A DNA stretch of 64,000 nucleotides from a virus (IMGVR_UViG_3300042691_031247); one strand, 5' to 3'. Counted from the stretch's first letter, positions 25,716 to 63,776 are shown. The notes: generated from the letters alone by a model not told the origin. Program-made: numbers and translations.

Positions 25716-26105
25716 TCAGGATGCGCTTTGCAGAGCCGCGGCGGCGGCAGCCTGCAGCGTCAGAACAGCCTGCGCAATCGCAGGTTGCTCCGCCGCTACG
25801 CTCGCCACGTCGCCGTAAGCAGCCGCCTTTTCACCAGTGCCGCCAAGGCCCGCGGCGGCAAGCATCTCGTCCAGCTGCTGGTTGGCAGCCGAGAGCGAGG
25901 AAGCTTGCGCAGCCGCGACCTTTTCTTGCTCCGCCGTGTAGAGCACATGAAGCTTGGAGGCAGCAGCCCACATCTCTGCGGCTTCGCCTTCCGTACGCGG
26001 CTGGATGCCGTGCGCGGCAAGCTTCTCGAAGAAATACGGTGCGGCAAGTTCCGACACGATTGTGGCGTATGCTTGCTCAGCCGCTTCTTTAACATTATCA
26101 GACAT
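25716..26105 (-). CDS. hypothetical Ala-rich head-associated protein
   Basis: 129 aa; AAGGAG SD; several K-x-A-A motifs. Confidence 0.7.
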   Translation of the reverse strand: MSDNVKEAAEQAYATIVSELAAPYFFEKLAAHGIQPRTEGEAAEMWAAASKLHVLYTAEQEKVAAAQASSLSAANQQLDEMLAAAGLGGTGEKAAAYGDVASVAAEQPAIAQAVLTLQAAAAAALQSAS

Positions 26106-26139
26106 AACGTGCTCCTTTGGGTTTAATTCCTACACGGCA

Positions 26140-27066
26140 TCACTTGAAGTCAACGCGAGCCAGACCGTTGGTGTGGCCGAACGAGCCACCCGAAGTCTGG
26201 TAAGCGAAGTACTCAAGCATGTAAGCCTCACGACGGATGTACATCGTGGTGGGCTCCAGCTCGTAGTTCTTGCCGATGAACTTCGGCGAGGCGAACATGA
26301 ACATGGCGTCATCGGGGACAAGATCGCGCTTGATCGTAACGATCCAGCGGCAGTTGAGGAAGTTAGTCTCCGCCCAACCGTTCTTGATGATGTCCTGCGA
26401 GAAGTCGCCACCCATCTCGTCACGGCCGAACTTGAGGAGTTCCTTGATCGTGATGTTATTCACGAGGCAGGTTTCAACCTCAAAGTGCGACGGCGTCCGG
26501 GGCATGACCTTCAGCGCGTCGACAAGGGTCTCACGCGTGATGCCGCCCGAGATCTCTTCGTACTGCACAGCGCCGCTGGCGACGTTGGCAACACCCGGAG
26601 TCGGGAGCACGGCGTTGAAGGCGGCAATAAACTTGCCGTCCTCTTCAGCCAGCATGTCCTTGATCATGTTGTCGCTGAGGACCTGACGGATGTCGATCAC
26701 GTACGTACGCAGCTCGTCGACGTCCTTCACAGCGCGGGGCGACACGATCCGGTCAAACATGACGCGGTAGCGCGGGCCACGGATGTAGAAGTTAATCGGG
26801 AGCGTCGCAAACGGGAGCGACACAGCCGCCGGGGAATCGGGCTCCTTGTCCACCACCTTGACGGGCTTGTCAGTGTCAACCTGACGGTCAAGCTCGTCGT
26901 TGGTGATGGTCAGCGGCGGCATAATCCGCCGGTAGAACCCGTCTTCACGCATCTTGGTGCGCGTGAAGTCGTTAACCGCGTCGATGGCCTGCTTCTGCAT
27001 GCCGGGGGTATCGAGCTGCTCAAAAAGCGTTTCGTTGAGCAGTTGGATCTCTTGCTGAGTGGGCAT
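26140..27066 (-). CDS. major capsid protein (probable HK97 fold)
   Basis: Start reassigned to MPTQQ (GGAGG SD); 308 aa; pattern FYRRIMPP...VSPRAVKDVDEL...IKDMLAEEDGKF fits HK97-type MCPs; position after protease, scaffold and decoration genes; strong codon bias. Confidence 0.75.
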   Translation of the reverse strand: MPTQQEIQLLNETLFEQLDTPGMQKQAIDAVNDFTRTKMREDGFYRRIMPPLTITNDELDRQVDTDKPVKVVDKEPDSPAAVSLPFATLPINFYIRGPRYRVMFDRIVSPRAVKDVDELRTYVIDIRQVLSDNMIKDMLAEEDGKFIAAFNAVLPTPGVANVASGAVQYEEISGGITRETLVDALKVMPRTPSHFEVETCLVNNITIKELLKFGRDEMGGDFSQDIIKNGWAETNFLNCRWIVTIKRDLVPDDAMFMFASPKFIGKNYELEPTTMYIRREAYMLEYFAYQTSGGSFGHTNGLARVDFK

Positions 27067-27105
27067 TTTGGGAACCTCCATGTTCCTTAATTAGTTAGGG
27101 ATAGG

Positions 27106-27684
27106 TCAGTCGATTGTGGCCGCAGTACCCGCCGGGAGGTACACGCACCAGAAGGAAAGCGTGTCCACACCGTTGTGGTTCTTCGACGCACCACTCGAAA
27201 CAACACCGCAAACCGGGTTTACGTACTGCACGGCGTTGGCCTTCGTCAGCACACCCTCAACGGCAGCGCCGCCAGTGGTGGGAGCAGTCAGAAGGTCACC
27301 CGGAGCATACGTCACCGCGCTACCGCCGGACGTCTTCACGTACTCGGTGGTGGCGATTTCATAACCACCGGTCGCAACAAGACCCGACAGCTTGCCCGAG
27401 GGCGACACTGCTTGGTGCATGAAGTTACCGGCCGCTGTGGTACCCGGATTGCTGACGTCAGCATCCGTCGAACCGTTCAGCAAGAAAATCGCGACGCCCG
27501 TAGCGCTGACACCCGGAACGAACACGTCCTTGCCGCCCTCTTTCGAGAGATGCACGACGCGACCGCGCGGGACGTCATAAGCGACCGTGCTCAGCAGCTT
27601 GGCCGAGTAGTCGAGGGACGCCATATCGAACCAGCCCTTTTTGACGTCAAGGCCGTGTTCAAACATAAGATCAGGAGCAGGCAT
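27106..27684 (-). CDS. putative capsid decoration/cement protein
   Basis: 192 aa, Gly/Thr-rich beta protein immediately upstream of the MCP. Confidence 0.55.
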   Translation of the reverse strand: MPAPDLMFEHGLDVKKGWFDMASLDYSAKLLSTVAYDVPRGRVVHLSKEGGKDVFVPGVSATGVAIFLLNGSTDADVSNPGTTAAGNFMHQAVSPSGKLSGLVATGGYEIATTEYVKTSGGSAVTYAPGDLLTAPTTGGAAVEGVLTKANAVQYVNPVCGVVSSGASKNHNGVDTLSFWCVYLPAGTAATID

Positions 27685-27739
27685 TGTTAGACCTCCGTGT
27701 CTTTCTCAATTGGAAACGTGTTCCGTAAAGGGGACGAAC

Positions 27740-28165
27740 TCAGGTAGTGGGCGGGTTAAGACCAAGGCCCGTAAACAGCTTTACGTCGGAAGCCTTGAGG
27801 CGACCATCGCGGGCACCCACATACCCGCTCGTCAGGCTGGCCGTCGGGTCGTAGCTGGCGGACTTTGTGGCCACCGGCGTACCAAGACGAGCCAGTTCAG
27901 CCGCGTTTTTGTGCGCGGCTAATTTGATAACAAGTTCCATCGCGCGCACCGGATCTTGAAGGGCGGCGGCAAGCGCTTCCTTCTGGTGGGCCTCGATCCG
28001 CTCGTTCTCCACGCACGCCTTGACGGCTTCGGGGATCAGGTGAGCCAGCTTTTCGCTGGTTTCAACCTGCGCCTTTTCGGCGGCGGCGGCTTTGGTCATC
28101 GCAGCATCGGAGTAACCGATGTAGTCGATGATCTTCTGTACGAGCGCGTTATTTTCGGTAGACAT
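27740..28165 (-). CDS. hypothetical head assembly protein
   Basis: 141 aa, helical; GGAGG SD; K-x-A motifs. Confidence 0.65.
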   Translation of the reverse strand: MSTENNALVQKIIDYIGYSDAAMTKAAAAEKAQVETSEKLAHLIPEAVKACVENERIEAHQKEALAAALQDPVRAMELVIKLAAHKNAAELARLGTPVATKSASYDPTASLTSGYVGARDGRLKASDVKLFTGLGLNPPTT

Positions 28166-28181
28166 TAAAACCTCCGTGTGA

Positions 28182-29525
28182 TCAACGATTCACGAGTTCG
28201 AGAACGTGCTGCTTCATCATGTCCCGCAGCTGGCGCGAACGCTTTGTGCGAGCTTCTTTGACTTGAAACCGACCAGCACGCTTAAAGTTTACAACAGCGC
28301 GACCGATGGCGTCTAAATCTTTAGCAGCAGCCATCTTCGGTTCTTCCATCGGCGGCATACCCGCGTCAGGCGCAGCGCCAGCTTCGGGCGGCATACCGCC
28401 TTCTGCGCCAGCACCACCGGCCCCGGACAGAGCTTGCAGCAACGCTTCCGGCGGAATGCCGAGTTCTTCAAGCGCCATAGCCAGCTCTTGAACAGCCTCG
28501 TCTTCCGACGGCTCGCCGCCGGCAGCTTCAGGAGCCGGGCCACCCTCAGCGCCCATCATGGCTTCAAGACCAGCGGGTGCGCCGCCAGCAGCAGCGTCAT
28601 CAGCCGGGGCGTCGCTCATACCAGAAGCAGCGTCTTCCGGCGCGGAGTGATCCTCGCCTTCAGCCGCCTCTTCGGTCGGATCGGCGGCCGCGGCCTTGGA
28701 GTTTACAAAACCGATAAACAGGTCGGCCATTTCGTCGGCTTCGCGGATCGTGTTAGCGCACACTTCGCGAACGGAAGCTTCGGCAGCAGCCTTGTCCATA
28801 CCGAGATGCGCGGCAAGCTCGTAACCCGCTTTGAACGCGGCAGCTTTGTCGCTGCGAAGCGCGGCAAGATCAGAACCTTCAATCTTGCCATCGTTGTCGG
28901 TGTCGAGTTTGTGCTGGTCGCCTTTTAGCTCGCCGGTCGACTCGCTTTTTTCTTCGGACTTCTCTTCAGTCTTTTTCTTTAAAAAAGCCGGCATCTCGGC
29001 CGCCTTCTCGTTGGTCAGCTTACTGGCGCCAAAGTTGATAAGGTTGGCAAGAATGTCGTTACCAAGTGTGCCGGCACGATCGCGAGCTTCCTTGAACGTA
29101 ACCGAGCTGTACTTCTCGCCGTCGTTAGCCTTGACCGGCGACGAAGTGCCCGGGTCATCCTTATCGCCCTTGAAATCTTTCTCGTTGGACGGATCTTCGC
29201 CAGTGGCCTTGGCCGAGACGCCGATGTTCGTTTGAACTTCGTCTTGGCGACCTTCTTGCGACATCTCCGGTGTGTTGTCTACAGCAAGAGCACCCTGCTG
29301 CTTCTTGACGTCAGCTTCGTACTCGCTGGCGCGCGCACCAGTGCTGGCGTTTTGCACGCCGTTGTCAGCGCTGGTCGTCGGATGCGATGAGGCACCCTGA
29401 TAGCCACCCGGATCAGCGGGCACGGGACCGGCCGACTTTTCAGCCGCAGTCTTAACCGGGCTCTGCGCAATCTCAGCGGCGAGAGCGTTAAGTTGATCGA
29501 ACAGTGAACGTTGCATCCGTGCCAT
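28182..29525 (-). CDS. putative prohead scaffolding/core protein
   Basis: 447 aa; acidic, Ala/Gly/Pro-rich low complexity; directly after the prohead protease. Confidence 0.55.
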   Translation of the reverse strand: MARMQRSLFDQLNALAAEIAQSPVKTAAEKSAGPVPADPGGYQGASSHPTTSADNGVQNASTGARASEYEADVKKQQGALAVDNTPEMSQEGRQDEVQTNIGVSAKATGEDPSNEKDFKGDKDDPGTSSPVKANDGEKYSSVTFKEARDRAGTLGNDILANLINFGASKLTNEKAAEMPAFLKKKTEEKSEEKSESTGELKGDQHKLDTDNDGKIEGSDLAALRSDKAAAFKAGYELAAHLGMDKAAAEASVREVCANTIREADEMADLFIGFVNSKAAAADPTEEAAEGEDHSAPEDAASGMSDAPADDAAAGGAPAGLEAMMGAEGGPAPEAAGGEPSEDEAVQELAMALEELGIPPEALLQALSGAGGAGAEGGMPPEAGAAPDAGMPPMEEPKMAAAKDLDAIGRAVVNFKRAGRFQVKEARTKRSRQLRDMMKQHVLELVNR

Positions 29526-29568
29526 GACTTTCTCCTTTGGGGTCTAACCGTTACCGATTAGCTTCCGT

Positions 29569-31026
29569 TCATGTGACATAATTTTGCATTACACAGTGGT
29601 TTGCTGTCAACCAATTGTTTCCATATTTCTCGCAGATGGCGGCGTAAGCAGCGATCTTATACAACGCGTAATGTTGCGCAAGAGCTGTTTCTGCTTTTCC
29701 ACTCGCTTGCTTGTCGGACGGAAACTCAACTGCCCGGGCGTTACGAAGCGCGGCTAAGTAAGCACGCTTCTCAACACTGACGGGTAATACGCTATGTGTG
29801 TGTGCTACCTTTTCAGCCCACACGCGCACGTTTTGCGGCGCCGCGTCAGCTGGAAAGTATACGTTATTCTCAAGCAACGTGACGACATCTGCGTCGTTCG
29901 CTAACTTTGAAAACACGTTAGGCAGCGCATACGCAACTGCACTAACAAGTGTGGCGTTAGCTGACTTAACTGTCAACGCTAAAAAATCTCGCAGCGGCAA
30001 GATTACTCCAGCGTCGGCTAGTCCGCGTAACACCTCAGACATTTTAACAGAAGGAGCGTTATTTGCATCAATAGCCGGTTGTACTTCGCCGGCGCTGGCA
30101 AGTGCTGTCTGCGCCCAGTTACCACCCGCGCCTGCATCCTTCTCCGCCTGCGCAAGCTGTGTTAACGCCTCTAGCTGCAGCTGAACACGGGCGGCAGGTG
30201 TGCGCCCTAAGTCGAACCCAAGCGGCGCGGTAATACCCAGCTGTTCGGCTAGTTCGGCGCCGGAAACACAGCTATTTGACGCGGCTTTCTGCAGCTGGCC
30301 GGATACGTAAGCAATGCGGTCTGCCGGGCGAAACACGTGGCTGATATCAAAAAACGTCGGGTTGGGGTTGTCGGCGTGGAGTACGTGGCCGTCTTCCAGT
30401 ACCCGCCCCATATTGTGCTTTAACCCGCCCGCCTTGCAGTGGCCGCCGTTTTCTACAGAGTCGCAGTACTCGGCGCGGGTCTTGGCCGTGTTACCGCAGG
30501 ACGAGCACTTGTCGAACGGGATCTTACATGCCATCGACACGGCGATCTCTTTGTCGTTGGCCAGCTTTTCCAGCTCTTTGTCTGCAATCAGGCCGCCGTT
30601 CCGGTCAGCCGCCTCTTTCGAGCCGTTTAGCGCCACGACCAGCTCGATACGTTTCATGGGCTCGTGGTAGGCGCTGGCCTTTACGATGCCGAAACTTTTA
30701 GCGGGGTTCTTGTTGGCGTGGTCGCGATAGAAGCGGGCAAACTTCTCGAACGTCTGATGGTAGTTCCGACAGCAGTCGCGAGTAAAGCCGTCGCCGTTAC
30801 GGTTCGGGCCGTAATCTTCTGTGGCGCCGATCGCGATCATGTGAACCGGCACTTCGTCTTTGGCAAACTTGATATTTTCAAGCTTGTGTGCAAACTCGGC
30901 ACCGGCGCGCTTTACAAGTTCCTGCTTGTCTACGCCGATGATCCCGCGGCTAGATACTTTGATAAGCGCAGCGACTGGCTCACTAAAGTCTTGAGCGTGC
31001 GGCTGGATGACCTTAATCATGCTCAT
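29569..31026 (-). CDS. prohead maturation serine protease
   Basis: PNRNGDGF, YRDHAN (His), AVSMACK (Ser), a Cys-rich insert (CSSC...YC...HC) and FFDISHVFRPADRIA, consistent with HK97/herpes-type prohead proteases. Confidence 0.75.
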   Translation of the reverse strand: MSMIKVIQPHAQDFSEPVAALIKVSSRGIIGVDKQELVKRAGAEFAHKLENIKFAKDEVPVHMIAIGATEDYGPNRNGDGFTRDCCRNYHQTFEKFARFYRDHANKNPAKSFGIVKASAYHEPMKRIELVVALNGSKEAADRNGGLIADKELEKLANDKEIAVSMACKIPFDKCSSCGNTAKTRAEYCDSVENGGHCKAGGLKHNMGRVLEDGHVLHADNPNPTFFDISHVFRPADRIAYVSGQLQKAASNSCVSGAELAEQLGITAPLGFDLGRTPAARVQLQLEALTQLAQAEKDAGAGGNWAQTALASAGEVQPAIDANNAPSVKMSEVLRGLADAGVILPLRDFLALTVKSANATLVSAVAYALPNVFSKLANDADVVTLLENNVYFPADAAPQNVRVWAEKVAHTHSVLPVSVEKRAYLAALRNARAVEFPSDKQASGKAETALAQHYALYKIAAYAAICEKYGNNWLTANHCVMQNYVT

Positions 31027-31028
31027 GT

Positions 31029-32012
31029 TTACTCTCCCGCGGACGAGCCGCCCAAGCTGTTAAGAAGCGCCGGGACGCTAAGTGCGCCAAGGACCGGAAG
31101 ACCAATACCAGCCATCCGTCCGCCAAAACGCGGTAACCGACGCAGCGCCTGTTGCAGCTGCGCGCCAGTCAAACGGCGGCCAGCCTTACCAACACCAGAC
31201 GCCGGCTCTGACGCAACTGCGGCAAGGACGTTAGCTGTGTCGTCAGCGCCGTGGCCAAATAAGCCGCCTAAGAAGTTACCGCGCGCGGCGTTCGTCGCGC
31301 CGCGTACACGCGGGCCGACCGATGACGGCGTCGTCATACCAGCAGATTCAAGCGGCAGGCTAACGTCACGCGGCACGTAATCCGCGCCGCGGAGTCGGCG
31401 GATGCTGTTGAGCATTTGCTGTGTGAACGACGGGTCGTGTGTGGCGTCGGGAAGGCCGCGTACATGCTTTGTGAGGTTTTCTGTAACACGTGACGGACCG
31501 GTATTTGCGCGCAGCTGTTCGATAGTGGGGCGAAGTTGCTTGGCGACGTCGTCACCGGACGCAAGAAACCGATCCATCTTGCCGTACGCGTCAATGGAGT
31601 TTGCTATTTGCCGCCCGCCGTAGCCGCCGACGCCAGCGCCCGCCAGATTAAGCAACGCGCCGCCAGAAGAGCCATCTTGGCCTTTTGCGGCAGCGATGGC
31701 GGGCGGCGGGTCAGTCTTGGTCAGCAGCATGTTCTTAGCCGCTGTCGCGCCAAGGCCGCCGATGCCGCCCATCAGCGCATAGTCGAGCATGGCGCGCCGT
31801 TTCTTTTTCCCCTGCAGCGCGCCGATTAAACCACCGGCGCCGGCACCGAGGGCGGCGTTCTGCAGATACGGGTTGCTCAGGATCTGAGACAGGTCAGCTT
31901 GCTTGCCGAGTGCCGCAGTTACTGTGGCTACTTTTTCAATTGCCGGATCGGGCGTGCGTGTAGCAATCGCCGACAAACCGCGGGCAAGCTCTTGTACGTC
32001 TGTTGTTTTCAT
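31029..32012 (-). CDS. glycine-zipper membrane-type protein, putative internal virion/ejection protein
   Basis: 327 aa with several GxxxG hydrophobic segments flanked by basic residues. Confidence 0.55.
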   Translation of the reverse strand: MKTTDVQELARGLSAIATRTPDPAIEKVATVTAALGKQADLSQILSNPYLQNAALGAGAGGLIGALQGKKKRRAMLDYALMGGIGGLGATAAKNMLLTKTDPPPAIAAAKGQDGSSGGALLNLAGAGVGGYGGRQIANSIDAYGKMDRFLASGDDVAKQLRPTIEQLRANTGPSRVTENLTKHVRGLPDATHDPSFTQQMLNSIRRLRGADYVPRDVSLPLESAGMTTPSSVGPRVRGATNAARGNFLGGLFGHGADDTANVLAAVASEPASGVGKAGRRLTGAQLQQALRRLPRFGGRMAGIGLPVLGALSVPALLNSLGGSSAGE

Positions 32013-32014
32013 AA

Positions 32015-33388
32015 TTACAGTAACTCGCGGGCCTTCTGCTGCGCTTCGAGATTACTCTTCAAACTCTCAGCGCGGATCTTCTCCATTTCAATCAGCTGTT
32101 TGATATCAAAATCAGCGAGCTGACCGGCCTCTAGCCGTTTGCGCAAAAGAGCCTGCATAGCTGCACCTGAACCAGTAAAGTTAGGAGCAATTTCGGCAAT
32201 TTGGTTGTACGCGGAAGCTACCTCGTGCGGGTCATAACCGGAGATAACCGGATCGTTCAGGATAAGGTCGTTTAGTACGCCGCGCGATTTGATTTGCTGC
32301 AGTTTGTTTTCGTGCTCGGCGTCGGACATCTGCGCAAACGCTTTTTGCTTTTGTTTGGTCGGGTCGGTCGATTTCCCGGCGTTGGCGTCCATTTCCGCTG
32401 CAAAACCAGACGGGCTCATGATCTTACCGAGATAACCCATCGTTCCGCTGTATGATGTCAGCGGGGGTGTTGTATCTGGTTTTTTTTTAACGGCTGCCAC
32501 CTTAAGGGCGAGCGGGGCCGTTCTCGGATCGTGCAGAATTGAGCCCGTAACGGGGGTCGGCGTCACTTTCTGCGCCACGGCGGGCTGCGTTAACGCCGCG
32601 AGCTTGCTCGCTGCATTGTTGTGCAACTCCACCGCTTTGATCACGTTCTCGACCAGCGTTACCACCGGAAGCGCGCCGAAAAAGTTTTCGCTGCTAGCGG
32701 CCTGCTTTGTGAAGTGCGGGTAAACAGCCGCAACCTTGTTTAGCGTCGAAACACCGAGGTCGCCGAGCCGCAGACCAACTTCGCGCAGCGCGTCCGGGAA
32801 CGCCATGTTGCCGGGTACACGAAAATACTGCGCCAACTCTTCCATAGCTGACGCCGCTTTGTGATGCGTCAGTGTGGCTAGCCGGCGGACTTCGTCGGCG
32901 TGGCGGGCGGCGGCCTGTTTTTCGCTATAGGCGCGTCGCGCGGCGGAGTGCTCGTCACGCGGCGGCGGTACATATGTGGGCGCCGGGAGCACGCTCTTGG
33001 CGGCGGCTGCTTTATTCAAGCTCGCGTTGCGCCGATTAATGAAACCTGTCGGCGCAACAGCGTACTCTGTCGAGATGATGCTGTTGTTTGTTAACTCAGC
33101 CGATGTTTTAACGTGCTTGGGATATAGCGCGTCCATAACCACGTTTACGTCGGCAAGCTGGAAGTCTGCCGCTTTCTCTAACGTGTTTGCGCCAAGTTCG
33201 CGTTGCTTGTTGGTGCGTCCAGTGTTGTACGCATGCACCATAAGATTAATATGCCCGGACGGGATGCCCGCATCACTCGCGCTTTTAATAATCGCGTTGT
33301 TCGGGGTGGCGCCTTCGTTGACCAACGTGGCCGCACGCTCAATTGCGCTCAGCAATTTTTGCTCAGCTTCTTTACTTAATGCCCGCAT
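32015..33388 (-). CDS. hypothetical head-region protein
   Basis: 457 aa, helical, at least seven K-x-A-[AS]-like motifs. Confidence 0.7.
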   Translation of the reverse strand: MRALSKEAEQKLLSAIERAATLVNEGATPNNAIIKSASDAGIPSGHINLMVHAYNTGRTNKQRELGANTLEKAADFQLADVNVVMDALYPKHVKTSAELTNNSIISTEYAVAPTGFINRRNASLNKAAAAKSVLPAPTYVPPPRDEHSAARRAYSEKQAAARHADEVRRLATLTHHKAASAMEELAQYFRVPGNMAFPDALREVGLRLGDLGVSTLNKVAAVYPHFTKQAASSENFFGALPVVTLVENVIKAVELHNNAASKLAALTQPAVAQKVTPTPVTGSILHDPRTAPLALKVAAVKKKPDTTPPLTSYSGTMGYLGKIMSPSGFAAEMDANAGKSTDPTKQKQKAFAQMSDAEHENKLQQIKSRGVLNDLILNDPVISGYDPHEVASAYNQIAEIAPNFTGSGAAMQALLRKRLEAGQLADFDIKQLIEMEKIRAESLKSNLEAQQKARELL

Positions 33389-34319
33389 CGGTTTTCTCCG
33401 GGTAGTGCAGTTCTTGGATCAGACCTTGATTCTGTAAAGAACCGCCAGCCGCAATAATCATCATTTCATCGTTGCGTAATTCTGCAGCGCCGTCATCAAA
33501 GGGTAACATTTTTATAGCTGCGGAATCCAGTTTAGTCCCCACTTTGAACGGCAGCGTGGCCAGCATCGCGCCAATATTCTCGACGATTGTGGCCTGCGAT
33601 TTCGTGGCGTTGTCGCTGTTTTTCTCGATCTCTACATATTTTACAAAAGAATCGATCAGCGGTAACTGGGTATGGCTATTTACCGGCACCGTGAGGCTGG
33701 CAATCGCGGCCTTGTACTTCATCGAGTGAATAGCGAAGTCTTGGAAAAACGCCGAAACACCCCCCGCGCCATCCGGTTTGGGAATCTCTAGACAACGATT
33801 AATTGCGGCGTCCAGTACGTATTGCCCGCCGCGAAAACCAAGTAGTTTCCACAGAAGGTCGTAGTGGCGCTCTTGGAGCCCGCGGGTCACAGCGTCAGCC
33901 ATCACAACGTTTACGATATAGTCGGTGTTGGGCAGCTTATTCCGAACGTCAAAAAAGGTATTGGCATACGCCTCAATTGTTTCGACTTCGGTGCCCAGTT
34001 TGTCGGCGATTTCTTGATCTGACTCGCCAGCCAGAATGCGCGCTTCAATAGCCCAGCGCGTCGGTTGCTTATCGGCGGCCCAGAGCGAGTGGGCCCAGAA
34101 CATCGCGCCGTCCCGCAGCATGGCGCCGTACGTGGCTGTTGGGTCGTTGTTAGCTTGCTCGAAGTGCCGCTTGAGCCGCAGTGCCCGCCTGATCCACACA
34201 AAGCCTTCTGGGCCGTCTAACGCGCGGGACGCATTTCGACCGCCGCTGTCGATTTGGACAGCCCGCAGCCAACGCCAGTTTGGCGGGCGCAACGGGTTGG
34301 TGCGGAACGCATTTAACAT
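33372..34319 (-). CDS. hypothetical protein
   Basis: 315-aa ORF overlapping both neighbours. Confidence 0.7.
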   Translation of the reverse strand: MLNAFRTNPLRPPNWRWLRAVQIDSGGRNASRALDGPEGFVWIRRALRLKRHFEQANNDPTATYGAMLRDGAMFWAHSLWAADKQPTRWAIEARILAGESDQEIADKLGTEVETIEAYANTFFDVRNKLPNTDYIVNVVMADAVTRGLQERHYDLLWKLLGFRGGQYVLDAAINRCLEIPKPDGAGGVSAFFQDFAIHSMKYKAAIASLTVPVNSHTQLPLIDSFVKYVEIEKNSDNATKSQATIVENIGAMLATLPFKVGTKLDSAAIKMLPFDDGAAELRNDEMMIIAAGGSLQNQGLIQELHYPEKTDAGIK

Positions 34320-34702
34320 TAGCGCAACGTCGGCGTATCGACGGTAACAGAAAAGACCAGCGTCTTGTTGGCCGACGGCGTGATCTTGAGATAAAGATAT
34401 CTTTGCGGGTTTGACGGCGAACCGTCGCGATTAAGATACGACACGTTTAAGTCGTTTTTAAACGCGGTTGTCTGATCAAACGCCAGCACTTTAAACGTGT
34501 CTGCAGGCAGCGTGTTATTTGGCGCTTTGTCCTGTTTGCTTGAGTACAGGGTCGCCGTAAAGTTACCAGTCGCGCCGCCAGCGGCTTCAGCAAGGCTGTA
34601 GCCCTTTAAAACGCCGCGGTGCGGCATGGGAACGGCGACCGTAGTCGCTTCGCCGCTGTTGGCTGTAAACGTGACGCTACCGGACCATACTGTGCTGGGC
34701 AT
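34319..34702 (-). CDS. hypothetical beta-rich protein
   Basis: 127-aa ORF, TAATG-coupled to the next gene. Confidence 0.65.
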   Translation of the reverse strand: MPSTVWSGSVTFTANSGEATTVAVPMPHRGVLKGYSLAEAAGGATGNFTATLYSSKQDKAPNNTLPADTFKVLAFDQTTAFKNDLNVSYLNRDGSPSNPQRYLYLKITPSANKTLVFSVTVDTPTLR

Positions 34703-34711
34703 ATTTCACCT

Positions 34712-37093
34712 TTACGCGTTAGCGATGGCGCCAAGATCAATATCCTGCGCGGCTTCTTCGGGATACGGCTCGATGGTCTTTTGCTTGAGGAACAGAATGA
34801 CGTCGCCAAGCATTTCAAATGCGTTGCGCAGCGAGTCTTCCAGTTCCGGCATGTCGGCTTTACCGTAACGTTCGGCAAACCGGTCACCGTGCCAGTAGAA
34901 CATGAACAGGATGCGGCCCAACTTGTCGAGGCCCTTGGTTAGTTCGCCCATGTACCGGTCGACGAGCGAGTCGTCGCGCACGGCGCGCAGCATGGCGCCC
35001 ACCATCGCGGTGTCGAACACTTCGCGCTGGCCGCTTTGCGCGGCGTCGATCACGGAGCGCACGTCCCGCTGGTCGAGGAGCGTGTTCGGGTTGTAAACGC
35101 TGCGGTCGGTTTGACTGGCACTCATACCCGGTACTTGCACCGCGGTATCAATGCCGAGCTGCGTTGGGATACTTGTACCCATGATACTCTCACCGCCCAT
35201 CACGGGGCCCGGATCGGTCGGAGCGGAGGGTGCGCCGTTGATCATCATCGGGCCGCCGTACGGATCAGCATACTTAACGCGGCACTCAAACTTGCGCTTG
35301 GCGGCCGCTTGTTTCAGGATCTCGCGAGCAGCTTGCTCGCGCAGACCGTGGTGCTCCACCAGCGTAACGAGCGCCTTGATGGGGCTCAGGTTAGCCTCTT
35401 TGTTAATCGTTACCGACGAGCCGTTGTGATAAACAGTCAGAGCAGCGGTCTTTTGCATGAGCGCCAACTGGGCGTCAACAAGGTTGCCGGGCATCAGGGC
35501 CGGCGGATCACTCTCACCACAACCACATGCGCCCTGATCTTCCGCGATCTCGTCATCATCTTCGCCTTTGCTCACCTTGAGCAGCTTGAAACCTTCCGGC
35601 ACAAAGATGTCGCCCATGCTCGCGCGCAGGCTGGCACCTTTCTTACCGTTGAGGTGAATACGGACACCGTCGCGCCACTTGTCGTAGTTCAGCGGGTCGG
35701 TATAGCAGCTGCCGCAAATGCTGCCCTTGGGCGGATACTTCGAGTGATCCTCAAGGTGCACTTCATAAACAGTGCTGCCGTTGCTGTCGCCGTATTCTTT
35801 GATCACGCGGAACGGCGCTGTTGTGTCGCCGCGCTTGCTGAGCGCAATGTAGCGGGCGTCTTTACTCGGGACGCTGTTGGCTTCCGGCAGGCCGTTAAAC
35901 CACGTATCAAACTCTTCGCCCTCGATCCGGGCCAGCGCAAAGACTTGGTCGGCGCGTGTATTGAGCCAGTTGCGCGCACCGTCAACGCGCACGACCGTGA
36001 TGAAGTTTTCACGCTTAGCGGCGCCTTGCGGATGTACAGCCACGTAGCAGCGCTCAATGTTGCCCGGCTTGACCAAAATTTCATACAAACCGCTTTCGGT
36101 CGGATTGAACAGCTTCTTTTCGACCTGAATGTGATACGGGATCGAGACGTTGTCGCGGTCACGCTCGTCTTGAATCAGCACGCCGTCGCGCAGCAGCTTT
36201 TCTTGATCGTCTTCGCTGTAACCAACGGGCGCCTTGGTCTGCACCGTGACGTCGTATGTGATAATTGTCAGGCCCTTAGCGGCGGCCGGCTCTTTGGGAG
36301 CCTCAGACAGCACACTGGCAATCTTTGTGTTTGCGGCAACTTCGCGCGCAGAGGCTTCAGCAATAGCCTGCTTGACGATATCTAAACCGTGAAACTCGTC
36401 GACGGCGGCGGCTAGTTGCGGCGCGTGTTTGCACGTGTTAATAAGCGTGCCAATCACTTCGCGCCCGGCCTGCTTCAAAAACGTCTGCAGGTCTAGCGCT
36501 TCGCCCATCTCCTTAAACGCCTGCGCTGTGTTTAACGTAGCGCTCTTGGCGAGAGCCGGCATCGCAGCCGTCATCATCTCTTTGAGTGTGGGCTGCGCAG
36601 AGCCAAACTTAGCCGGGCTGCGCGAAAGCTGCGTAAAGTCGGGCTGACGTTGGCCCATGCCCGACAGGTTGCGCTGTACGCCGCTACCCAGAATGTTGGG
36701 CTTGCGGTTGATCAGGTAGTTAATCCAGTTTTCCTTAAGCGGTACGAACATGTCCTGATTTTTGATATACAGGAGTTCGTGGCCTTTGAGGTCGCCGTTG
36801 AGGAAGAACACCGGCGCATACAGCCAGTTAGAGCCGACCTTGAACGCAAAAACACCAACCGCCTTGGTGTTTTCCCGGTTGCGGTCGAGCAGCTGGAAAC
36901 CAATTTCGTGGTCGAGTAGCTTGGGCGCTGAATCGCGCAGGTAGGCGTGAGCCAGATTGCTGAACGACTGCTCGAAGGAGGTGTCGTCGCCTTTACCGCC
37001 TAAATCGGCGTACTTGGTCTGGGTGCGGTCATACGACTGCATCACCTTCAGCCAATGCTTAACAGACGACTCTTTCGCTTTTTTGTTATACAC
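34712..37093 (-). CDS. large hypothetical head-region protein
   Basis: Start reassigned to GTG at 37093 (CATGGAGG SD); ~793 aa; multiple K-x-A motifs; no family recognised. Confidence 0.7.
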   Translation of the reverse strand: MYNKKAKESSVKHWLKVMQSYDRTQTKYADLGGKGDDTSFEQSFSNLAHAYLRDSAPKLLDHEIGFQLLDRNRENTKAVGVFAFKVGSNWLYAPVFFLNGDLKGHELLYIKNQDMFVPLKENWINYLINRKPNILGSGVQRNLSGMGQRQPDFTQLSRSPAKFGSAQPTLKEMMTAAMPALAKSATLNTAQAFKEMGEALDLQTFLKQAGREVIGTLINTCKHAPQLAAAVDEFHGLDIVKQAIAEASAREVAANTKIASVLSEAPKEPAAAKGLTIITYDVTVQTKAPVGYSEDDQEKLLRDGVLIQDERDRDNVSIPYHIQVEKKLFNPTESGLYEILVKPGNIERCYVAVHPQGAAKRENFITVVRVDGARNWLNTRADQVFALARIEGEEFDTWFNGLPEANSVPSKDARYIALSKRGDTTAPFRVIKEYGDSNGSTVYEVHLEDHSKYPPKGSICGSCYTDPLNYDKWRDGVRIHLNGKKGASLRASMGDIFVPEGFKLLKVSKGEDDDEIAEDQGACGCGESDPPALMPGNLVDAQLALMQKTAALTVYHNGSSVTINKEANLSPIKALVTLVEHHGLREQAAREILKQAAAKRKFECRVKYADPYGGPMMINGAPSAPTDPGPVMGGESIMGTSIPTQLGIDTAVQVPGMSASQTDRSVYNPNTLLDQRDVRSVIDAAQSGQREVFDTAMVGAMLRAVRDDSLVDRYMGELTKGLDKLGRILFMFYWHGDRFAERYGKADMPELEDSLRNAFEMLGDVILFLKQKTIEPYPEEAAQDIDLGAIANA

Positions 37094-52153: not shown

Positions 52154-53732
52154 GTTTTTTGCCCCAGTTCTGGATGGTGTCAAAGACATCATTGCCGTAC
52201 AGCTGCGTAGCCTTGTCGAACATATTCATCTGTGGCAGTGTTCCGGTCGCGGCTGCTTGCGCCATTTGATATCTATACTGCGGATCAAGCATCGAGCGGT
52301 ACAGATGTGACTTCTGCCGCGCGGCCAAGATGAAGTCACCGCGTTGCTTTGCTTTTAACAGATGGTCAGTGACGTTAGCGAACACCGGTTTGTTGTGGTC
52401 GTACACGATCGGCGTGCGAAAGTTCAGCAGGTTACGAAACTGCTGCGCGTACACACTGTTCTCGGCCGCTTTGATCTGCGAACCGACAACGGCTGCCGGC
52501 GCATGAAACCGAAACTTCGTCGGCGTGTGCGTGACGCCCTTGTACTTCGGCTTCGGATCGTCGACGTGCCAGTCTTGCGGTGATTGCGCGATTAATCGCC
52601 GCAGGATCTCGTGCTTGCGGTCGTATTCGCGGCGATCTGAGTGCGTTTTCGCCGCACGTAGCTCGTCGAGAATGTTGGGCTTCTTGGGTGCGGGCTCTTT
52701 TTCGGCGTCTTTTTCGATTACTTTGACTTTTTCGTAATAGGCGGGGTCTTCGGACAGATGATCTTTGGCAATTTCTTTGGCGACTTGATCATTGTTCGTG
52801 TGTTCGTGCTCATGCTGCGCTCCTTCGGCTAATGCTTTCTGAGAAATTTCCCGATCGGGAACATTGTCGGCTTTTCCACCCTGTAATAGGTCGTTCTTTC
52901 CCGAGCGGGAAAGATTTTCTTCCCGATCGGGTGTGTTGTCCCGTGCAGGCATATCGCTGGCGGCTGTTTTATGCGTTGCGGCGCAATAGCCGCTTTTTTT
53001 ACACACGCACGTCGGCGGGCAAGTGCGGGCGCCGGAGCAGTTACAGTCGTAAGTCGTGTCGTCAGCCGGTGCGCTGGCGGCTTTGAGTTCTCCCCGACTG
53101 ATGGGGTTACTGAACCTATGCTCTTCCGTCGTTTCGGCAGGGGTTTCGTAACCCTTTGACTTACCGTTGTCGAGCAGGACGCCTTTACGTCTGGCAGCGA
53201 CCGTAATGTGAAACGGGTGGTCGTCATTGGGGAGCGCCGACAGCCCGTAGCTTTTGCGCAGCGCCGAAAGTCCCGGGCTGCTGACCTGAATAGCCCAGAC
53301 CTTGCTTACGCCGTCGACATTCTTGACGTCTATCTCTTTCAGGCCGCCCAGCGTGTAGCCGAACATGTGCCCGCGCTCGTTGATCTTGTCAGCGCCGATA
53401 GATGCTACTTCAGCCGCGGTAAGGACCGATATATGCGCATTTACAAGATCGCCCTTAACGTTTGGAACGTTAAACACACCAGCCGTCGGTAATTCAGCAC
53501 CGGGCTCGGTTAGGGCGTCAAACACGCCCCGAACCAGCGCGTTCGGTACAGATAACAAAAGCCAGCCCGATTTGGCGAGATACAGCCGGCCGGCGAGCGG
53601 ATAACTTGTGGCCGCTTGCTTGTTGCCGCCGCGATAAAGCCAGCCGAGAGCGTTACCAGCGGCGTAGGCGGGGTGCTCGCGGAAGTACTGCTGGTCCCAA
53701 GCGAGCGGGTCGAGTGCTGAGAGGCTGTCCAT
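52146..53732 (-). CDS. multidomain protein with 2H phosphoesterase-like domain
   Basis: Two H-x-[S/T]-h motifs (AHISVL, FHITVA) about 75 aa apart; then a Cys-rich CNC...C...CVC...YC segment, HEHEHT...EIAKDHLSEDPAYY, and further small domains. Confidence 0.65.
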   Translation of the reverse strand: MDSLSALDPLAWDQQYFREHPAYAAGNALGWLYRGGNKQAATSYPLAGRLYLAKSGWLLLSVPNALVRGVFDALTEPGAELPTAGVFNVPNVKGDLVNAHISVLTAAEVASIGADKINERGHMFGYTLGGLKEIDVKNVDGVSKVWAIQVSSPGLSALRKSYGLSALPNDDHPFHITVAARRKGVLLDNGKSKGYETPAETTEEHRFSNPISRGELKAASAPADDTTYDCNCSGARTCPPTCVCKKSGYCAATHKTAASDMPARDNTPDREENLSRSGKNDLLQGGKADNVPDREISQKALAEGAQHEHEHTNNDQVAKEIAKDHLSEDPAYYEKVKVIEKDAEKEPAPKKPNILDELRAAKTHSDRREYDRKHEILRRLIAQSPQDWHVDDPKPKYKGVTHTPTKFRFHAPAAVVGSQIKAAENSVYAQQFRNLLNFRTPIVYDHNKPVFANVTDHLLKAKQRGDFILAARQKSHLYRSMLDPQYRYQMAQAAATGTLPQMNMFDKATQLYGNDVFDTIQNWGKKHG

Positions 53733-55188: not shown

Positions 55189-56223
55189 TCAAAGAATCTT
55201 GGCGGCGATCAGGCATCCGCGGGCAACAGCGTGCAGCGGATCTTTTGCGTGGCGAACTTCTTTCACCGGCAACGGAAAGCCATTCTCTTCAAGCTTCTTT
55301 GTGAACATTTCCACAAAGCCTTTGGCCCGCGTCGTACCGCCGGCTACAGATATCAAAATCGGTTCTTTGAATTTGGGCAGCGCCTTGTGGTCGCGCAGTG
55401 CGGCAGCGAGCTGCTTGGTCGTGTAATCAATCAGGCGCTCGTAGTACACGCTCACAGCAGCAAGAATCGCGTTGTCGCCGCCGCCCTCGCCGATAACAAA
55501 CGTGCCATGTTCTTTTTCAGCCTGAACGACCGAGTCGGGCTCGTTCGTCGCAACAGCCGTCATACGGTCGATCCAGTCGCCAGACTTTGTCGTCGAGAAC
55601 AGCACCGTAGGCTCGCCGTTGAGCATCACGCACACGTTCACCATGCCGGCGCCCCACGACAGGCCAATACCCGTATAGTCGTCGTGCTCTAACTCCGAGT
55701 AGCACAGTGCCTCGGCCTCGTTGATGGCGCGGGCGGCGTAGCCCTGTTCGGCCAGCACGGTGCGTACTACGTCTTCGTGGTACGCAACGTCAAAATCATC
55801 GTCTTCTTGGTCGACGGGCTGCGCCGGCACGCAGAAGATCAGCTTCTCGTGGGGCGTGTTAGCTGTGCCGACCACTTCTTTGAGAATGAACGCCAGCACG
55901 CGCTTGGCCTCTTTTTCCTTGGGGCTGACAACGCCGCGGTACATTGGGCGCTTGGCAGAATCATTGCGCTCGACGGCTTTCTCGATGGCGTCTTGGCCGA
56001 GAATGATAAAACTCCCGTCGGCGTCCTTGACGAACACTTTGCCCTGCAGGCCCTTTTCGATCATCTTTGTGGCCACGGGCGTCGTCGGCTTGATGACATA
56101 GAACGCGTCGCGAAAGTCTTTGTACTGCACGTTGCCGACCGTGTGCGGCTCGGTGGTGGAGTTGGCGGCGGCGTCTTGGGCCAGCACGATAAACGATGTT
56201 CCAACGTCGAGTCCCTTGGCCAT
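55189..56223 (-). CDS. actin-like ATPase (MreB/FtsA/ParM superfamily)
   Basis: Phosphate-1 GLDVGTS, connect INEAEAL, phosphate-2 GLSWGAGMVNV, adenosine VAGGT, and AVARGCL. Confidence 0.85.
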   Translation of the reverse strand: MAKGLDVGTSFIVLAQDAAANSTTEPHTVGNVQYKDFRDAFYVIKPTTPVATKMIEKGLQGKVFVKDADGSFIILGQDAIEKAVERNDSAKRPMYRGVVSPKEKEAKRVLAFILKEVVGTANTPHEKLIFCVPAQPVDQEDDDFDVAYHEDVVRTVLAEQGYAARAINEAEALCYSELEHDDYTGIGLSWGAGMVNVCVMLNGEPTVLFSTTKSGDWIDRMTAVATNEPDSVVQAEKEHGTFVIGEGGGDNAILAAVSVYYERLIDYTTKQLAAALRDHKALPKFKEPILISVAGGTTRAKGFVEMFTKKLEENGFPLPVKEVRHAKDPLHAVARGCLIAAKIL

Positions 56224-57384: not shown

Positions 57385-57385
57385 A

Positions 57386-60346: not shown

Positions 60347-60350
60347 TACG

Positions 60351-61058: not shown

Positions 61059-61091
61059 AAAGAGAGCCCTCCGTGGTGTAAAACGAGTGTG

Positions 61092-63050
61092 TTAAAACGC
61101 GCTGCGGCTCCTGCGGTGTTGCGTGGGCTGGCCAGCGCCTTGTGCCGCCTGCGGCGCAAACGGCGAACGGAACTGCATCTGCATCTGCACGGGCGACTGC
61201 AGCTTCGGCTGGCCGGCACCGTAGTACGCAGCTGCGCCTACGGCCGGAAGCGCTAACGCCGAATGTCGTCCGGCAAGTTGACCCGCCTGACCGACAGCGC
61301 TTGTTGCCGCACCAGCAGCCGCGCCGGCTGTGCCCATCATATTGCCAACAGCGTTCAACGTCGGCCGGTTTGGCGCGGCGTTAATAAGGCGAGTGCTTTG
61401 CTGCGCCACAGTGTCACCCACAGCCGTAGCCGCTCGACCGGCGCCGCCTACCAGCCCACGCGCACCAGCAGCCAATCCGCGCGCGCCAGCAGCAAGCCCG
61501 CGCGCAGCGAGGCCGCCAAACGCCTGTAACGCGTTTGCGTTTTTGCTGGCGCACGCTGAGCCGGCAGCCGCAGCTAGCATTGGTAGTTTTTTCTTTACAA
61601 CCGGTTTTGGCGCCGACTTTGGCAGCGGTTGCTGAGCCTGAAACGGAACAGCAGCTGACTTTGCCGCCGACTGTTGACTGTTTGTGGCGTCCGTCGGAAC
61701 CGGACTTGTAGCCTCGCGCTGCTTGTCGTCGATTGGCTTGCTGTTGCCGCGCGAACTCGGTGGGCAGCTCATTTCAGTCTTGCCGCGGGGCGCACTGGAG
61801 ACAGCTTTCTTTTCTTTCTTGTCTGTCTTCTTCTTGCTACCGACCGGGCGGCACGAATCATTGCTGTACGGCTTTTTGCCCGGCACTGGCTCGTAGCCGG
61901 TCCAGCATCGGCCGGCTACCTTCATGCCAAACTCCAGTGCCGAGCCCTGCTTCACACCGGTCAGGCTAGCGTTCTGCAACTGCGGCATGAGCTGTTCAAT
62001 GATATTTTTATTGTGGGTCAAGAAGTCGTACATTTGTCGCCCCTGATCGCTAGACATATTAGGATCTCGGCCCATCAACATCGTGGTGCCGAACTCCGGG
62101 CTGAGCTGCCCGAGCGCATTAATTTGATCCATAGGGTTGCCGCCCTTGCCGCCGCCCATCATGCCGTAAAGAGCATTCGCGCCTTGGCCAACCATGCGGC
62201 GTGGGCCGTCGCCGAACATGCCGGCGCCAGCTGCGCCCAGACCAGCCGCGCCCAAGCCCAGCGCGCCCATCGCTCCGCCCATACCGTAGTTGCCGCGCCC
62301 ACCCATGAACGCGCCAGCTAACGCCAGCGGCACACCGGCGCCAATGGCATAGCGCGCTTCGGTCGGCATGCTGTTCCACATGCCCATCAGGCCGTCATTA
62401 TTCGGCTGCTTCGCGTTCGCGGGATTTAACGGATGGTTGGGGTCTTGTGCGGCGGCCTCAAACAAATTTGGCACCGCGTTATTTTCGCCGGCTCCGCCGC
62501 CGCCGACCATGCCTGTGGCGCGCCCAGCGCCGTACATCGCGCCGGCGCCTGTAGCCACGTTCAGCGGGTTAAGCTTGTCGCCGACCGGGCTCGTGCCGAA
62601 CACTTGCCCAGCCGCAGTCTGGACGGGGCGCACCACGCGGTCGCCGAGCTTGGCGCCGGTTGCCGCAGCAGCTTGGCCCGGCCCGTTCATCGCGTACCGC
62701 GCCGCGTCATCGGCATAGTTCAGACCATGGCGGACCGCGTCTTGCGAGACTTGGCCGACGCTGCCGACAAATTTTGCGCCCTGCGTCGCCTTGTTCGCGA
62801 TTGCTTGCCCGGCGCCGCTGATCCGATTCCCGACCGCGTCGTCCACTTTGTTAAAGCCTTTTGATACCGCCGAGCCAGTATTGGCGACCGTATCTTTGAC
62901 CGCTTTACGTGCAGCGACGGGAATCTGCCGCCGCACACCGGCCATGGCGCCCCGGACACTCTTTACCGCGCCGTCGGCCAGTCCGCGAAAATCCACCGCG
63001 GCTTCTTTGTCTGCGCCGCCAAGTTGTGTACCAAATTCATACGGAGTCAT
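61092..63050 (-). CDS. Gly/Ala-rich multidomain protein, putative internal virion polyprotein
   Basis: 652 aa; leader MTPYEFG...DKEAA; glycine zippers; CWTGYEPVPGKKPYSNDSC motif; RGLAAGA tandem repeats. Confidence 0.65.
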   Translation of the reverse strand: MTPYEFGTQLGGADKEAAVDFRGLADGAVKSVRGAMAGVRRQIPVAARKAVKDTVANTGSAVSKGFNKVDDAVGNRISGAGQAIANKATQGAKFVGSVGQVSQDAVRHGLNYADDAARYAMNGPGQAAAATGAKLGDRVVRPVQTAAGQVFGTSPVGDKLNPLNVATGAGAMYGAGRATGMVGGGGAGENNAVPNLFEAAAQDPNHPLNPANAKQPNNDGLMGMWNSMPTEARYAIGAGVPLALAGAFMGGRGNYGMGGAMGALGLGAAGLGAAGAGMFGDGPRRMVGQGANALYGMMGGGKGGNPMDQINALGQLSPEFGTTMLMGRDPNMSSDQGRQMYDFLTHNKNIIEQLMPQLQNASLTGVKQGSALEFGMKVAGRCWTGYEPVPGKKPYSNDSCRPVGSKKKTDKKEKKAVSSAPRGKTEMSCPPSSRGNSKPIDDKQREATSPVPTDATNSQQSAAKSAAVPFQAQQPLPKSAPKPVVKKKLPMLAAAAGSACASKNANALQAFGGLAARGLAAGARGLAAGARGLVGGAGRAATAVGDTVAQQSTRLINAAPNRPTLNAVGNMMGTAGAAAGAATSAVGQAGQLAGRHSALALPAVGAAAYYGAGQPKLQSPVQMQMQFRSPFAPQAAQGAGQPTQHRRSRSAF

Positions 63051-63195
63051 GGGGTCGTTCCTGTTTTGTTATTTCTGGTTGCGGCGCGTAATCGCACCGG
63101 CCGCCTTCGCAGCAGGTTTCTAAAATAATGTGACAAAAAGGGCAGACTAACTTGCCGCGGATCTCAATCGGCGGGCTTTCGCACTGCGGGCACAT
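63037..63195 (-). CDS. 52-aa Cys-rich zinc-ribbon protein (not in ORF track)
   Basis: MCPQCESPPIEIRGKLVCPFCHIILETCCEGGRCDY...; TAATG-coupled to the upstream gene. Confidence 0.65.
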   Translation of the reverse strand: MCPQCESPPIEIRGKLVCPFCHIILETCCEGGRCDYAPQPEITKQERPHDSV

Positions 63196-63776
63196 TACCA
63201 CTCCAGCTCCACCGGGCGCTGCGTCTTGTAATTAAAGTCAACGTCAATCGGCGAGCGGAACTTCACGCCGGGAAGCGGAAGCTTCGGCGCCACAGAAGCC
63301 GTACCACCAAGGAGCCCAGCCGCAACCAGCGACGGCACGCCATACGATGTGTCCGCCAGCTGCGATAAGCCGCGGCCACCAGCCTGCAGCGCCTTGCCGG
63401 CAAAATCTGTGACGTGGCCGACACCACGAGTTGCCCGACCAGCAGCCCGGCCGCCAAAGCCCAGCGCCGACATGACGTCGCCGTACATGCCGGTGTTACC
63501 CGCGCCGTGATCGATCACCGTCTTGCCGCCCTTCATGGCTTCGCGGCCGACGCCTTTGGCTAACCCAGCTGCGCCACTCGTGGCCTGCCCGAGCCCTTCG
63601 ATCCCGCCGCCAAAGCCGCGCACCAGATGCTTGGCACCCTGATTGATCGTCTTGGCGCCTGTGGCAACCCCGCGGCCAGCTTGCGCCAGCCGAGCGAAAA
63701 TCGAACCCATGTTAATGCTCGGGGCTGCAGATTTTTCTTGCTGCCCAACGCTGTAGCCAAACTCAAACGGCGTCAT
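63195..63776 (-). CDS. Gly-rich protein, paralogous in its leader to the 652-aa protein
   Basis: Start reassigned to MTPFEFGYSVGQQEKSAA; amphipathic Gly repeats; C-terminal hydrophobic segment. Confidence 0.65.
   Translation of the reverse strand: MTPFEFGYSVGQQEKSAAPSINMGSIFARLAQAGRGVATGAKTINQGAKHLVRGFGGGIEGLGQATSGAAGLAKGVGREAMKGGKTVIDHGAGNTGMYGDVMSALGFGGRAAGRATRGVGHVTDFAGKALQAGGRGLSQLADTSYGVPSLVAAGLLGGTASVAPKLPLPGVKFRSPIDVDFNYKTQRPVELEW

Follow-up and report, generated by a model that had tools for sequence, protein, structure and literature searches.

A Lys-x-Ala motif confined to the head module of a large tailed phage is a likely cleavage site of its gp21-fold prohead protease

Introduction

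What does a short peptide motif signify when it recurs again and again in the head proteins of a phage? We address this question for a 64,000-nucleotide stretch of viral DNA (IMGVR_UViG_3300042691_031247; hereafter the window), which spans bases 27206-91205 of one 198,101-bp contig and in which the motif in question reads lysine, any residue, alanine and then a small residue (K-x-A-small). An earlier note, made from the sequence alone, had proposed that this motif is a head-maturation cleavage code read by a protease encoded at 29569-31026. Our analysis narrows that proposal and sustains its core: the excess of the motif is confined to the head module, and we consider it likely that K-x-A-small is where the prohead protease encoded by the phage, the 485-amino-acid (aa) product of that gene, recognises and cuts its substrates.

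Prohead proteases decide which parts of the head proteins survive into the virion. The prohead protease of T4, gp21, belongs to MEROPS S77 and has the cleavage motif (L/I)-x-E, and gp175 of phiKZ cuts after (S/A/G)-x-E. To our knowledge, few phages have had the specificity of these enzymes mapped; cleavage comes after Glu in T4, phiKZ and SPN3US.

The genes of the window lie nearly all on the minus strand, as do all features located below between window positions 25716 and 56223, and they describe a tailed phage of large size: among them are genes for a baseplate J-like protein, an HK97-type capsid and a multisubunit RNA polymerase. A nucleotide search of the head region against GenBank phages gave no match. 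Protein searches led to the cultured 'orphan' Salmonella phage Arash, to which the capsid protein is 28% and the protease 38% identical, and to three Vibrio phages; many relatives were found in IMG/VR, on contigs of 150-235 kb.

Results

In order to measure enrichment, we took 66 non-overlapping minus-strand open reading frames (ORFs) of the window and shuffled each protein separately to obtain expected counts. The K-x-A peptides listed previously are present in the sequence, and across the 25716-63776 span K-x-A-[AS] occurred 43 times against 16.2 expected (z 6.9), an enrichment that persists after control for composition. The upstream tail and baseplate proteins held seven such sites against 6.3 expected. 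Shifted or swapped control patterns gave z values of 0.0 (KxxA[AS]), -0.7 (RxA[AS]), 1.6 (KA[AS]) and 2.2 (ExA[AS]), and the reversed pattern [AS]AxK showed a weak excess (z 2.5). When all 1,600 gapped dipeptides and the a.bc patterns were ranked without prior choice, K.A was the top dipeptide in the enriched proteins (56 vs 24.9 expected, p 5e-8) and K.AA the top a.bc pattern (22 vs 4.1 expected); the same scan of the remaining window proteins returned nothing comparable to either.

The extent of the signal was then defined with the pattern K.A[ASGT] over the 251 ORFs of the genome. Six neighbouring proteins at 25716-37117, of 129, 141, 447, 485, 457 and 801 aa, hold 35 sites against 8.3 expected, and these are exactly the six most enriched ORFs of the genome; all other ORFs together hold 78 sites against 81.7 expected. 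The excess of K-x-A-small is confined to the head module. The motif had been described as running throughout 25716-63776, a claim that we reject: over the distal 37-64 kb, counts were at expectation both in the genome scan and in a comparison of nine orthologous loci, and the same is true of the 284-, 242-, 119-, 652- and 193-aa proteins that had been named as carriers. Each of the 35 sites is a different 12-mer with the codon usage of the background, so that the signal is at the protein level and a DNA-level repeat or codon artefact is ruled out. Paralogy is also ruled out as a source of inflated counts, there being only one weak local match among the proteins of the block.

Five of the six enriched proteins contain 16-30% Ala (the 801-aa protein, 10%), the modelled 457-aa protein is largely helical, and helix ends are close to six of the eight sites in it. 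These features would suit an explanation in which the motif merely follows from the structure of helical, Ala/Lys-rich proteins of the scaffold type, e.g., as a helix C-terminal feature, with no specific recognition partner. We regard this as very improbable. Shuffling protein by protein controls for composition, the shifted patterns KxxA[AS] and KA[AS] gave no excess of similar size and the reversed one a weak excess, and other Ala-rich proteins of the same genome, i.e., those of 652 aa (18% Ala), 242 aa (24%) and 284 aa (16%), show no excess; the same shuffles, control patterns and Ala-rich proteins rule out a composition artefact. Furthermore, the motif also occurs in the non-helical capsid leader and in the disordered linker of the protease.

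The 485-aa protein (29569-31026) is identified as the prohead protease by an AlphaFold2 model with the gp21 fold and by its position in the head module. The model has a mean predicted local distance difference test (pLDDT) score of 90.6 and consists of a catalytic domain (residues 1-234) that a disordered linker joins to a helical domain at the C-terminus, residues 236-250 being the only segment that scores below 50. With residues 1-234 as query, the top three Foldseek matches were all T4 gp21 (5jbl; probability 1.0, template-modelling score on the target 0.54-0.59). VIA-align gave T4 gp21 5jbl a Z of 11.4 (root-mean-square deviation 3.6, 152/165 residues aligned), followed by the proteases of varicella-zoster virus (VZV; Z 5.7) and human cytomegalovirus (HCMV; Z 4.3). 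As modelled, the catalytic domain has the fold of T4 gp21 and herpesvirus assemblin. In a deep alignment of 104 homologues that share about 40-45% identity with the window protease, H103, S164 and four Cys are invariant; Ser164 and His103 are the presumed catalytic pair, with a spacing that we take to be similar to that of known members.

The protease matches nothing in Pfam or NCBIfam, Peptidase_S77 included, and no sequence in the PDB; its sole profile match is phrog_2774, of unknown function (E 4e-10, residues 75-246). Judged by the model, it would work like a gp21-type protease, yet it lies outside the curated sequence families of prohead proteases. The family to which it belongs is very large, with 2,613 representative clusters, of which 761 match at E values under 1e-30, and sequence homologues of the catalytic domain include gp19 of phage G (E 8e-12) and gp13 of Stormageddon, a 'capsid maturation protease' (E 2e-6). 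On the minus strand, the protease gene is followed by the scaffold-like gene (28182-29525) and, two small genes on, by the capsid gene (26140-27081), and the protease-scaffold-capsid order is the same in Arash (gp222-gp226).

Three sites within the protease itself are predicted self-sites (the arrow marks the predicted scissile bond). K39-R-A↓G (30901-30912), with G or S after the bond across the alignment, keeps its Lys and Ala in 88% of the 104 homologues. K247-A-A↓S (30277-30288) keeps both in 71%, with the motif carried by the adjacent alignment column in 19 more homologues; in the model it falls in the one stretch that is disordered, the linker that begins where the catalytic domain ends. 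K439-Q-A↓S (29701-29712), where Lys and Ala are kept in 79%, reads K439-x-A↓S/A with x free and lies in a loop approximately 45 residues from the C-terminus.

Two other features of this protein were observed. The four invariant Cys (C174, C177, C188, C197) fall between residues 174 and 197 of the catalytic domain, an arrangement that suggests a zinc-binding insert. In addition, about a fifth of the protease homologues listed are 600-1,300 aa long owing to inteins with LAGLIDADG homing endonucleases (e.g., P0003, P0009, P0054), inserted near residue 72 or 170, beside the invariant N75/N77/D79 and S164 motifs. Homologue P0054 seems to have two inteins; the window protease gene has none.

Conservation was examined in sets of 30-34 close orthologues per protein, from genomes with 66-97% protease identity. 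At many sites Lys and Ala are kept in 100% of the orthologues, while x drifts and a small residue is retained at the fourth position; in the 129-aa protein, for instance, the K62 site is read as KAAA, KTAA, KVAA or KSAA. Conservation of the motif Lys was 0.91 vs 0.77 for other Lys in the same proteins (p 0.003), and that of the motif Ala was 0.88 vs 0.69 for other Ala (p 7e-5). The x position, at 0.62, and likewise the flanks fell below the protein mean of 0.74. Conservation at aligned positions, which had been named as a check on the proposal, is thus found for K and A, above background, and x is free.

We next looked at more distant relatives, i.e., 32 loci (L096-L136) with protease identities of 40-49% and a guanine-plus-cytosine (GC) content of 42-69%, from which every plus-strand ORF of at least 70 aa within ~6 kb of the protease was taken. 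In all 32, K.A ranked first of the 1,600 patterns, with p from 1e-6 to 1e-14. It was also the top pattern in Arash gp218-gp225 (44 vs 19.7 expected), which are proteins detected in Arash virions by mass spectrometry (MS; PMC10585845), and the ORFs around the protease of locus L035 (30% protease and 24% capsid identity, GC 64%) showed the same excess. The motif recurs in every relative tested within this clade of roughly 200-kb phages.

The logo pooled from 1,761 sites in the distant relatives is asymmetric over P5-P2' and reads [F/L/M]-[E/V/I]-K-x-A-[S/A]-[D/A]. Enrichment was two- to threefold for F/L/M at P5, fourfold for E at P4 (with V/I as the alternative), two- to threefold for S/A at P1' and threefold for D at P2'. 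P2 is occupied by any residue but G, D or P, and Pro is depleted to 0.1-0.3 of its expected frequency at P2, P1' and P2'. Around the protease of these distant loci, K...D is often the second most enriched pattern, because Asp is preferred at P2' (K-x-A-[S/A]-D).

Outside the clade, Bacillus phage G has an excess of K.A in gp19 (8 vs 2.4 expected) and gp21 (7 vs 2.8 expected), and its gp19 carries K-V-A↓S directly after the catalytic domain; these features are suggestive of a K-x-A specificity in phage G. A multi-omics study of this phage called gp19 a head maturation protease and mapped no site (PMC12484599).

The major capsid protein (26140-27081; 313 aa, HK97 fold) has a weak NCBIfam match to HK97-fold capsids, and its Arash counterpart, gp226, is annotated as major capsid protein. 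The peptide MQKQA, which had been placed at its N-terminus, in fact forms residues 28-32 of a longer, conserved ORF and therefore ends a predicted leader of 32 residues, with the predicted site K30-Q-A32↓I33 (26983-26994). Leader and K-Q-A are invariant in close relatives, and the aligned leader ends read MQKQA↓I in the window, GVKQA↓A in L035 and LVKEA↓G in Arash.

Six of the 13 head-block proteins (those of 129, 141, 447, 485, 327 and 457 aa) have a K-x-A-small site that begins within residues 20-42, compared with 4/179 proteins elsewhere in the genome (Fisher p 5e-6), and K30-Q-A↓I of the capsid protein adds a seventh head protein with a leader-type site. Similarly, the first K.A lies at residues 20-39 in 153 of 274 ORFs of the distant relatives. 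The removable propeptides of T4 and SPN3US have this same appearance; those of SPN3US are mostly N-terminal, with multiple motif copies (PMC10052503). As for the idea that the motif marks both propeptides and polyprotein junctions, the first part agrees with these seven putative N-terminal leaders; the second is not supported. Proteins with several sites have the look of scaffold or core components that are broken into pieces, rather than of enzyme modules strung together.

The most heavily marked of these is a helical head protein of 457 aa (32015-33388), the top enrichment in the genome, in which eight sites vs 1.1 expected lie between residues 35 and 296 and the C-terminal ~160 residues are site-free. 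Its orthologues average 6.3 sites vs 1.1 expected, and K126 is kept in 33/33 at a flank identity of 0.49. In the model, which is of moderate confidence (pLDDT 68), six of the eight sites are at most four residues from coil.

The scaffold-like protein of 447 aa (28182-29525), which is acidic and rich in Ala, Gly and Pro, is encoded between the protease and capsid genes. It carries seven sites (K25, K30, K227, K245, K277, K397 and K415), with five of the strict form against 1.36 expected. Of the 34 orthologues, 33-34 retain sites 25, 227, 245 and 397; identity at x is 0.32-0.38 for the first three and 0.85 for site 397. Residues 220-267 of this protein show a weak similarity to residues 424-479 of the protease (37% over 56 residues, E 0.03), and both stretches hold K-x-A sites, an arrangement that recalls the common C-termini of herpesvirus proteases and scaffolds.

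Two small head proteins have four sites each. That of 141 aa (27740-28165) has K25, K81, K86 and K101 vs 0.5 expected, with K25-A-A in 30/33 orthologues; that of 129 aa (25716-26105), which is Ala-rich, has K6, K28, K62 and K93 vs 0.6 expected, with K62 in 30/30 orthologues at an x identity of 0.23. The large head-module protein of 801 aa (34712-37117) holds six K.A[ASGT] sites vs 1.5 expected (K191, K215, K265, K493, K556 and K602), K265 being kept in 29/33 orthologues. It matched nothing in the protein atlas, PHROGs, Pfam or NCBIfam; from its weak similarity to Arash gp218 at both ends, it is taken to be the counterpart of that virion protein, for which 1,149 spectra were recorded in virions (PMC10585845). 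The protein atlas entry begins at residue 9, so the true product may have 793 aa. A role as portal is not supported, a homologue of the annotated Arash portal being encoded outside the window and lacking sites.

Two further proteins are candidates at lower site numbers. The Gly-rich protein of 327 aa (31029-32012) has one N-terminal site, K27-V-A↓T (31923-31934), and its putative substrate status rests on the place of that site in the leader window. The 2H phosphoesterase-domain protein of 528 aa (52146-53732; Pfam 2H-SAK and DUF5661) has three sites vs 0.8 expected. Its K217-A-A↓S (53073-53084) is kept in 9/9 orthologues at a flank identity of 0.36, and K38-Q-A↓A (53610-53621) in 8/9. From the distal set proposed earlier, this protein retains plausible conserved single sites and is, tentatively, the only candidate substrate there; the rest of the set drops out.

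How might the motif be used? Precedents within the same fold supply a register: gp245 of SPN3US cuts after A-x-E (PMC10052503), and herpesvirus sites have the form hydrophobic-x-A↓S/T, those of assemblin (pUL26) in pseudorabies virus being given as YLQA-T and VQA-S (PMC4498786). Because we follow these characterised members (SPN3US, T4 and herpesviruses), K-x-A is read as P3-x-P1. The cleft would hold the substrate in an extended form that places Lys at P3, Ala at P1 and Ser/Ala/Gly/Thr at P1'; P2 would admit any residue except Gly, Asp and Pro, and a hydrophobic residue at P5, Glu/Val/Ile at P4 and Asp at P2' would be preferred. Processing would take place inside the assembled prohead. There, the catalytic domain may be freed from the C-terminal helical domain at K247-A-A↓S, and the protease may trim itself at either end (K39, K439). 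The capsid protein, together with several further head proteins, would lose a leader of about 25-40 residues, and the 447-aa, 457-aa and two small proteins would be cut at several sites each, whereupon the scaffold or core fragments would leave or rearrange before DNA packaging. With regard to the Lys-x-Ala specificity attributed to this protease, the motif behaves like its recognition site. The enrichment, conservation, logo, fold and site locations are results reported here; from them we infer the remaining steps, namely cleavage as such, the position of the scissile bond after Ala and the role of the 485-aa protease as the cutter.

An alternative is that the motif is bound and not cut, serving as a docking or capsid-targeting element by which scaffold and core proteins would attach to the capsid shell, to the protease or to one another during prohead assembly, with any cleavage elsewhere. 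Its conservation, its restriction to the head module and its N-terminal position would fit targeting or assembly too, and several sites fall in predicted helices, which are better suited to binding than to proteolysis. Against this, fixed K and A, a free x, a small P1' and the absence of Pro from P2 to P2' are the P3-x-P1 grammar of proteases of the same fold (PMC10052503; PMC4498786). Moreover, sites lie at the domain boundary of the protease itself, in a disordered linker, and the scaffold-like proteins bear many copies, as proteins destined for degradation would. On balance, we hold pure binding to be unlikely.

Cleavage by another enzyme, whether viral or of the host, was also considered, given that the window encodes a matrixin-family metalloprotease. 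This protein of 275 aa (49180-50007) has two domains, one that binds peptidoglycan and one of the M10 matrixin metalloprotease type, and is probably a lysis or cell-wall enzyme, not the head protease. Besides carrying that peptidoglycan-binding domain, it sits in a lysis-like operon rather than in the head module; the motif clusters, in every relative, around the gp21-fold protease and inside it at domain boundaries; and in the established precedents of T4 and phiKZ/SPN3US it is the prohead protease that processes the head proteins. That the matrixin, another phage peptidase or a host enzyme cuts at these sites is therefore scarcely credible.

Several observations weigh against cleavage at K-x-A by the 485-aa protease. 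The placement of sites in the models is mixed: the P1 Ala is at most four residues from coil in 10/14 modelled sites, and protease site 247 is in a linker, in keeping with the expectation that sites would fall in linkers. Other sites depart from it. In the 457-aa protein two of the eight are mid-helix, and in the protease K137 is at the start of a helix within the folded catalytic domain and K457 is mid-helix. With sites located mid-helix or inside a folded domain, not every match can be cut. A PDB profile search gave no sequence bridge to T4 gp21, which leaves the link to fold only, and His103/Ser164 can therefore not be superposed on known catalytic residues. In Gordonia phage Stormageddon K.A is not enriched and ranks 72nd, and the specificity is therefore not shown for the whole protease family; its generality across the family was set aside, with a hint in phage G and absence in Stormageddon. 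The bond after Ala is assigned by analogy, and a cleavage product at K-x-A was not observed. Our literature search found no paper that maps a cleavage site for this protease family. Finally, the MS paper on Arash virions gives coverage values, and its supplements consist of an annotation table without a peptide list (PMC10585845).

The motif had further been expected to let virion cargo be predicted from sequence. This is unsupported, because about 80 chance matches lie outside the head block, the RNA polymerase subunits are at expectation and the match in the sigma-like protein is unconserved. The RNA polymerase genes adjoin the head module and encode beta fused to the N-terminal part of beta' (40035-44438; 1,467 aa) and a separate C-terminal part of beta' (37175-39055; 626 aa). 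Neither shows a K-x-A excess, though gp206 and gp216, which correspond to them in Arash, rank with the most abundant virion proteins by MS (PMC10585845), and the subunits were rejected as processed cargo. The sigma-like protein (5143-5985) was likewise rejected as cargo tagged by K34-P-A↓G, this site not being conserved in nine relatives. The motif is informative only in combination with conservation and position.

One gene elsewhere in the window also drew our attention. A protein of 344 aa (55189-56223) has a full-length match to Pfam Volactin (E 1.7e-62), i.e., an actin-like gene in a phage, and is 91% conserved among relatives.

Discussion

The system described here is of a known kind, and its proposed K-x-A specificity would be new for a phage prohead protease; in the literature that we searched, no paper reported it for any phage. 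The likeness to T4 gp21 extends to the fold (Z 11.4), a head-module gene beside those for scaffold and capsid, predicted self-processing, and P3-x-P1 sites in many head proteins, including a capsid leader and a multi-site scaffold or core. However, there is no detectable sequence similarity, P1 is Ala and not Glu, P3 is Lys and not Leu/Ile, and the window protease has the invariant four-Cys cluster and a C-terminal helical domain of ~235 residues.

The resemblance to phiKZ gp175 and SPN3US gp245 is one of setting: a large phage with a multisubunit RNA polymerase that is packaged in the virion (in the relative Arash), and one protease predicted to act on many head proteins through a short motif and mostly N-terminal propeptides. 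The differences are that the window motif ends in Ala instead of Glu, that its RNA polymerase subunits have no excess of sites, and that it belongs to a separate, Arash-like phage lineage.

Herpesvirus assemblin (pUL26) shares a P1 Ala followed by a small P1' (PMC4498786), as well as the fold (VZV Z 5.7, HCMV Z 4.3). The layout is also alike: the protease domain is followed by a linker with a release site and then by a helical C-terminal part, and the second site is located ~45 residues before the C-terminus. In contrast, P3 is Lys in the window and Val/Leu/Ile in herpesviruses, and the window scaffold is mainly a separate gene, with a weak local similarity to the protease tail. Phage G gp19 and Stormageddon gp13 are homologous in the catalytic domain, and an excess of K.A is seen in the former phage and none in the latter.

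Taken together, the data lead us to favour, somewhat less firmly than the reading of the motif in this phage, the broader view that a very large unannotated branch of the gp21 fold, whose 2,613 clusters come for the most part from phages of ~150-235 kb that have not been cultured, cleaves by a Lys(P3)-x-Ala(P1)↓small grammar and, in its P1 Ala and layout, stands nearer to herpesvirus assemblin than to T4. The cleavage idea is directly testable in the cultured Salmonella phage Arash, for which virion data from liquid chromatography-tandem MS exist (PMC10585845). If the broader view is true, propeptides and fragments of the scaffold could be recognised in the sequences of thousands of uncultured phages. 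A Lys-x-Ala specificity would also explain the function of several ORFans per genome. The correct mature ends of capsid and scaffold proteins would then be available for modelling and for cryo-electron microscopy maps across a widespread clade of ~200-kb phages. A change of the S1 pocket from Glu to Ala would be traceable within one fold, and the phage and herpesvirus branches of that fold would be linked by a common P1 Ala.

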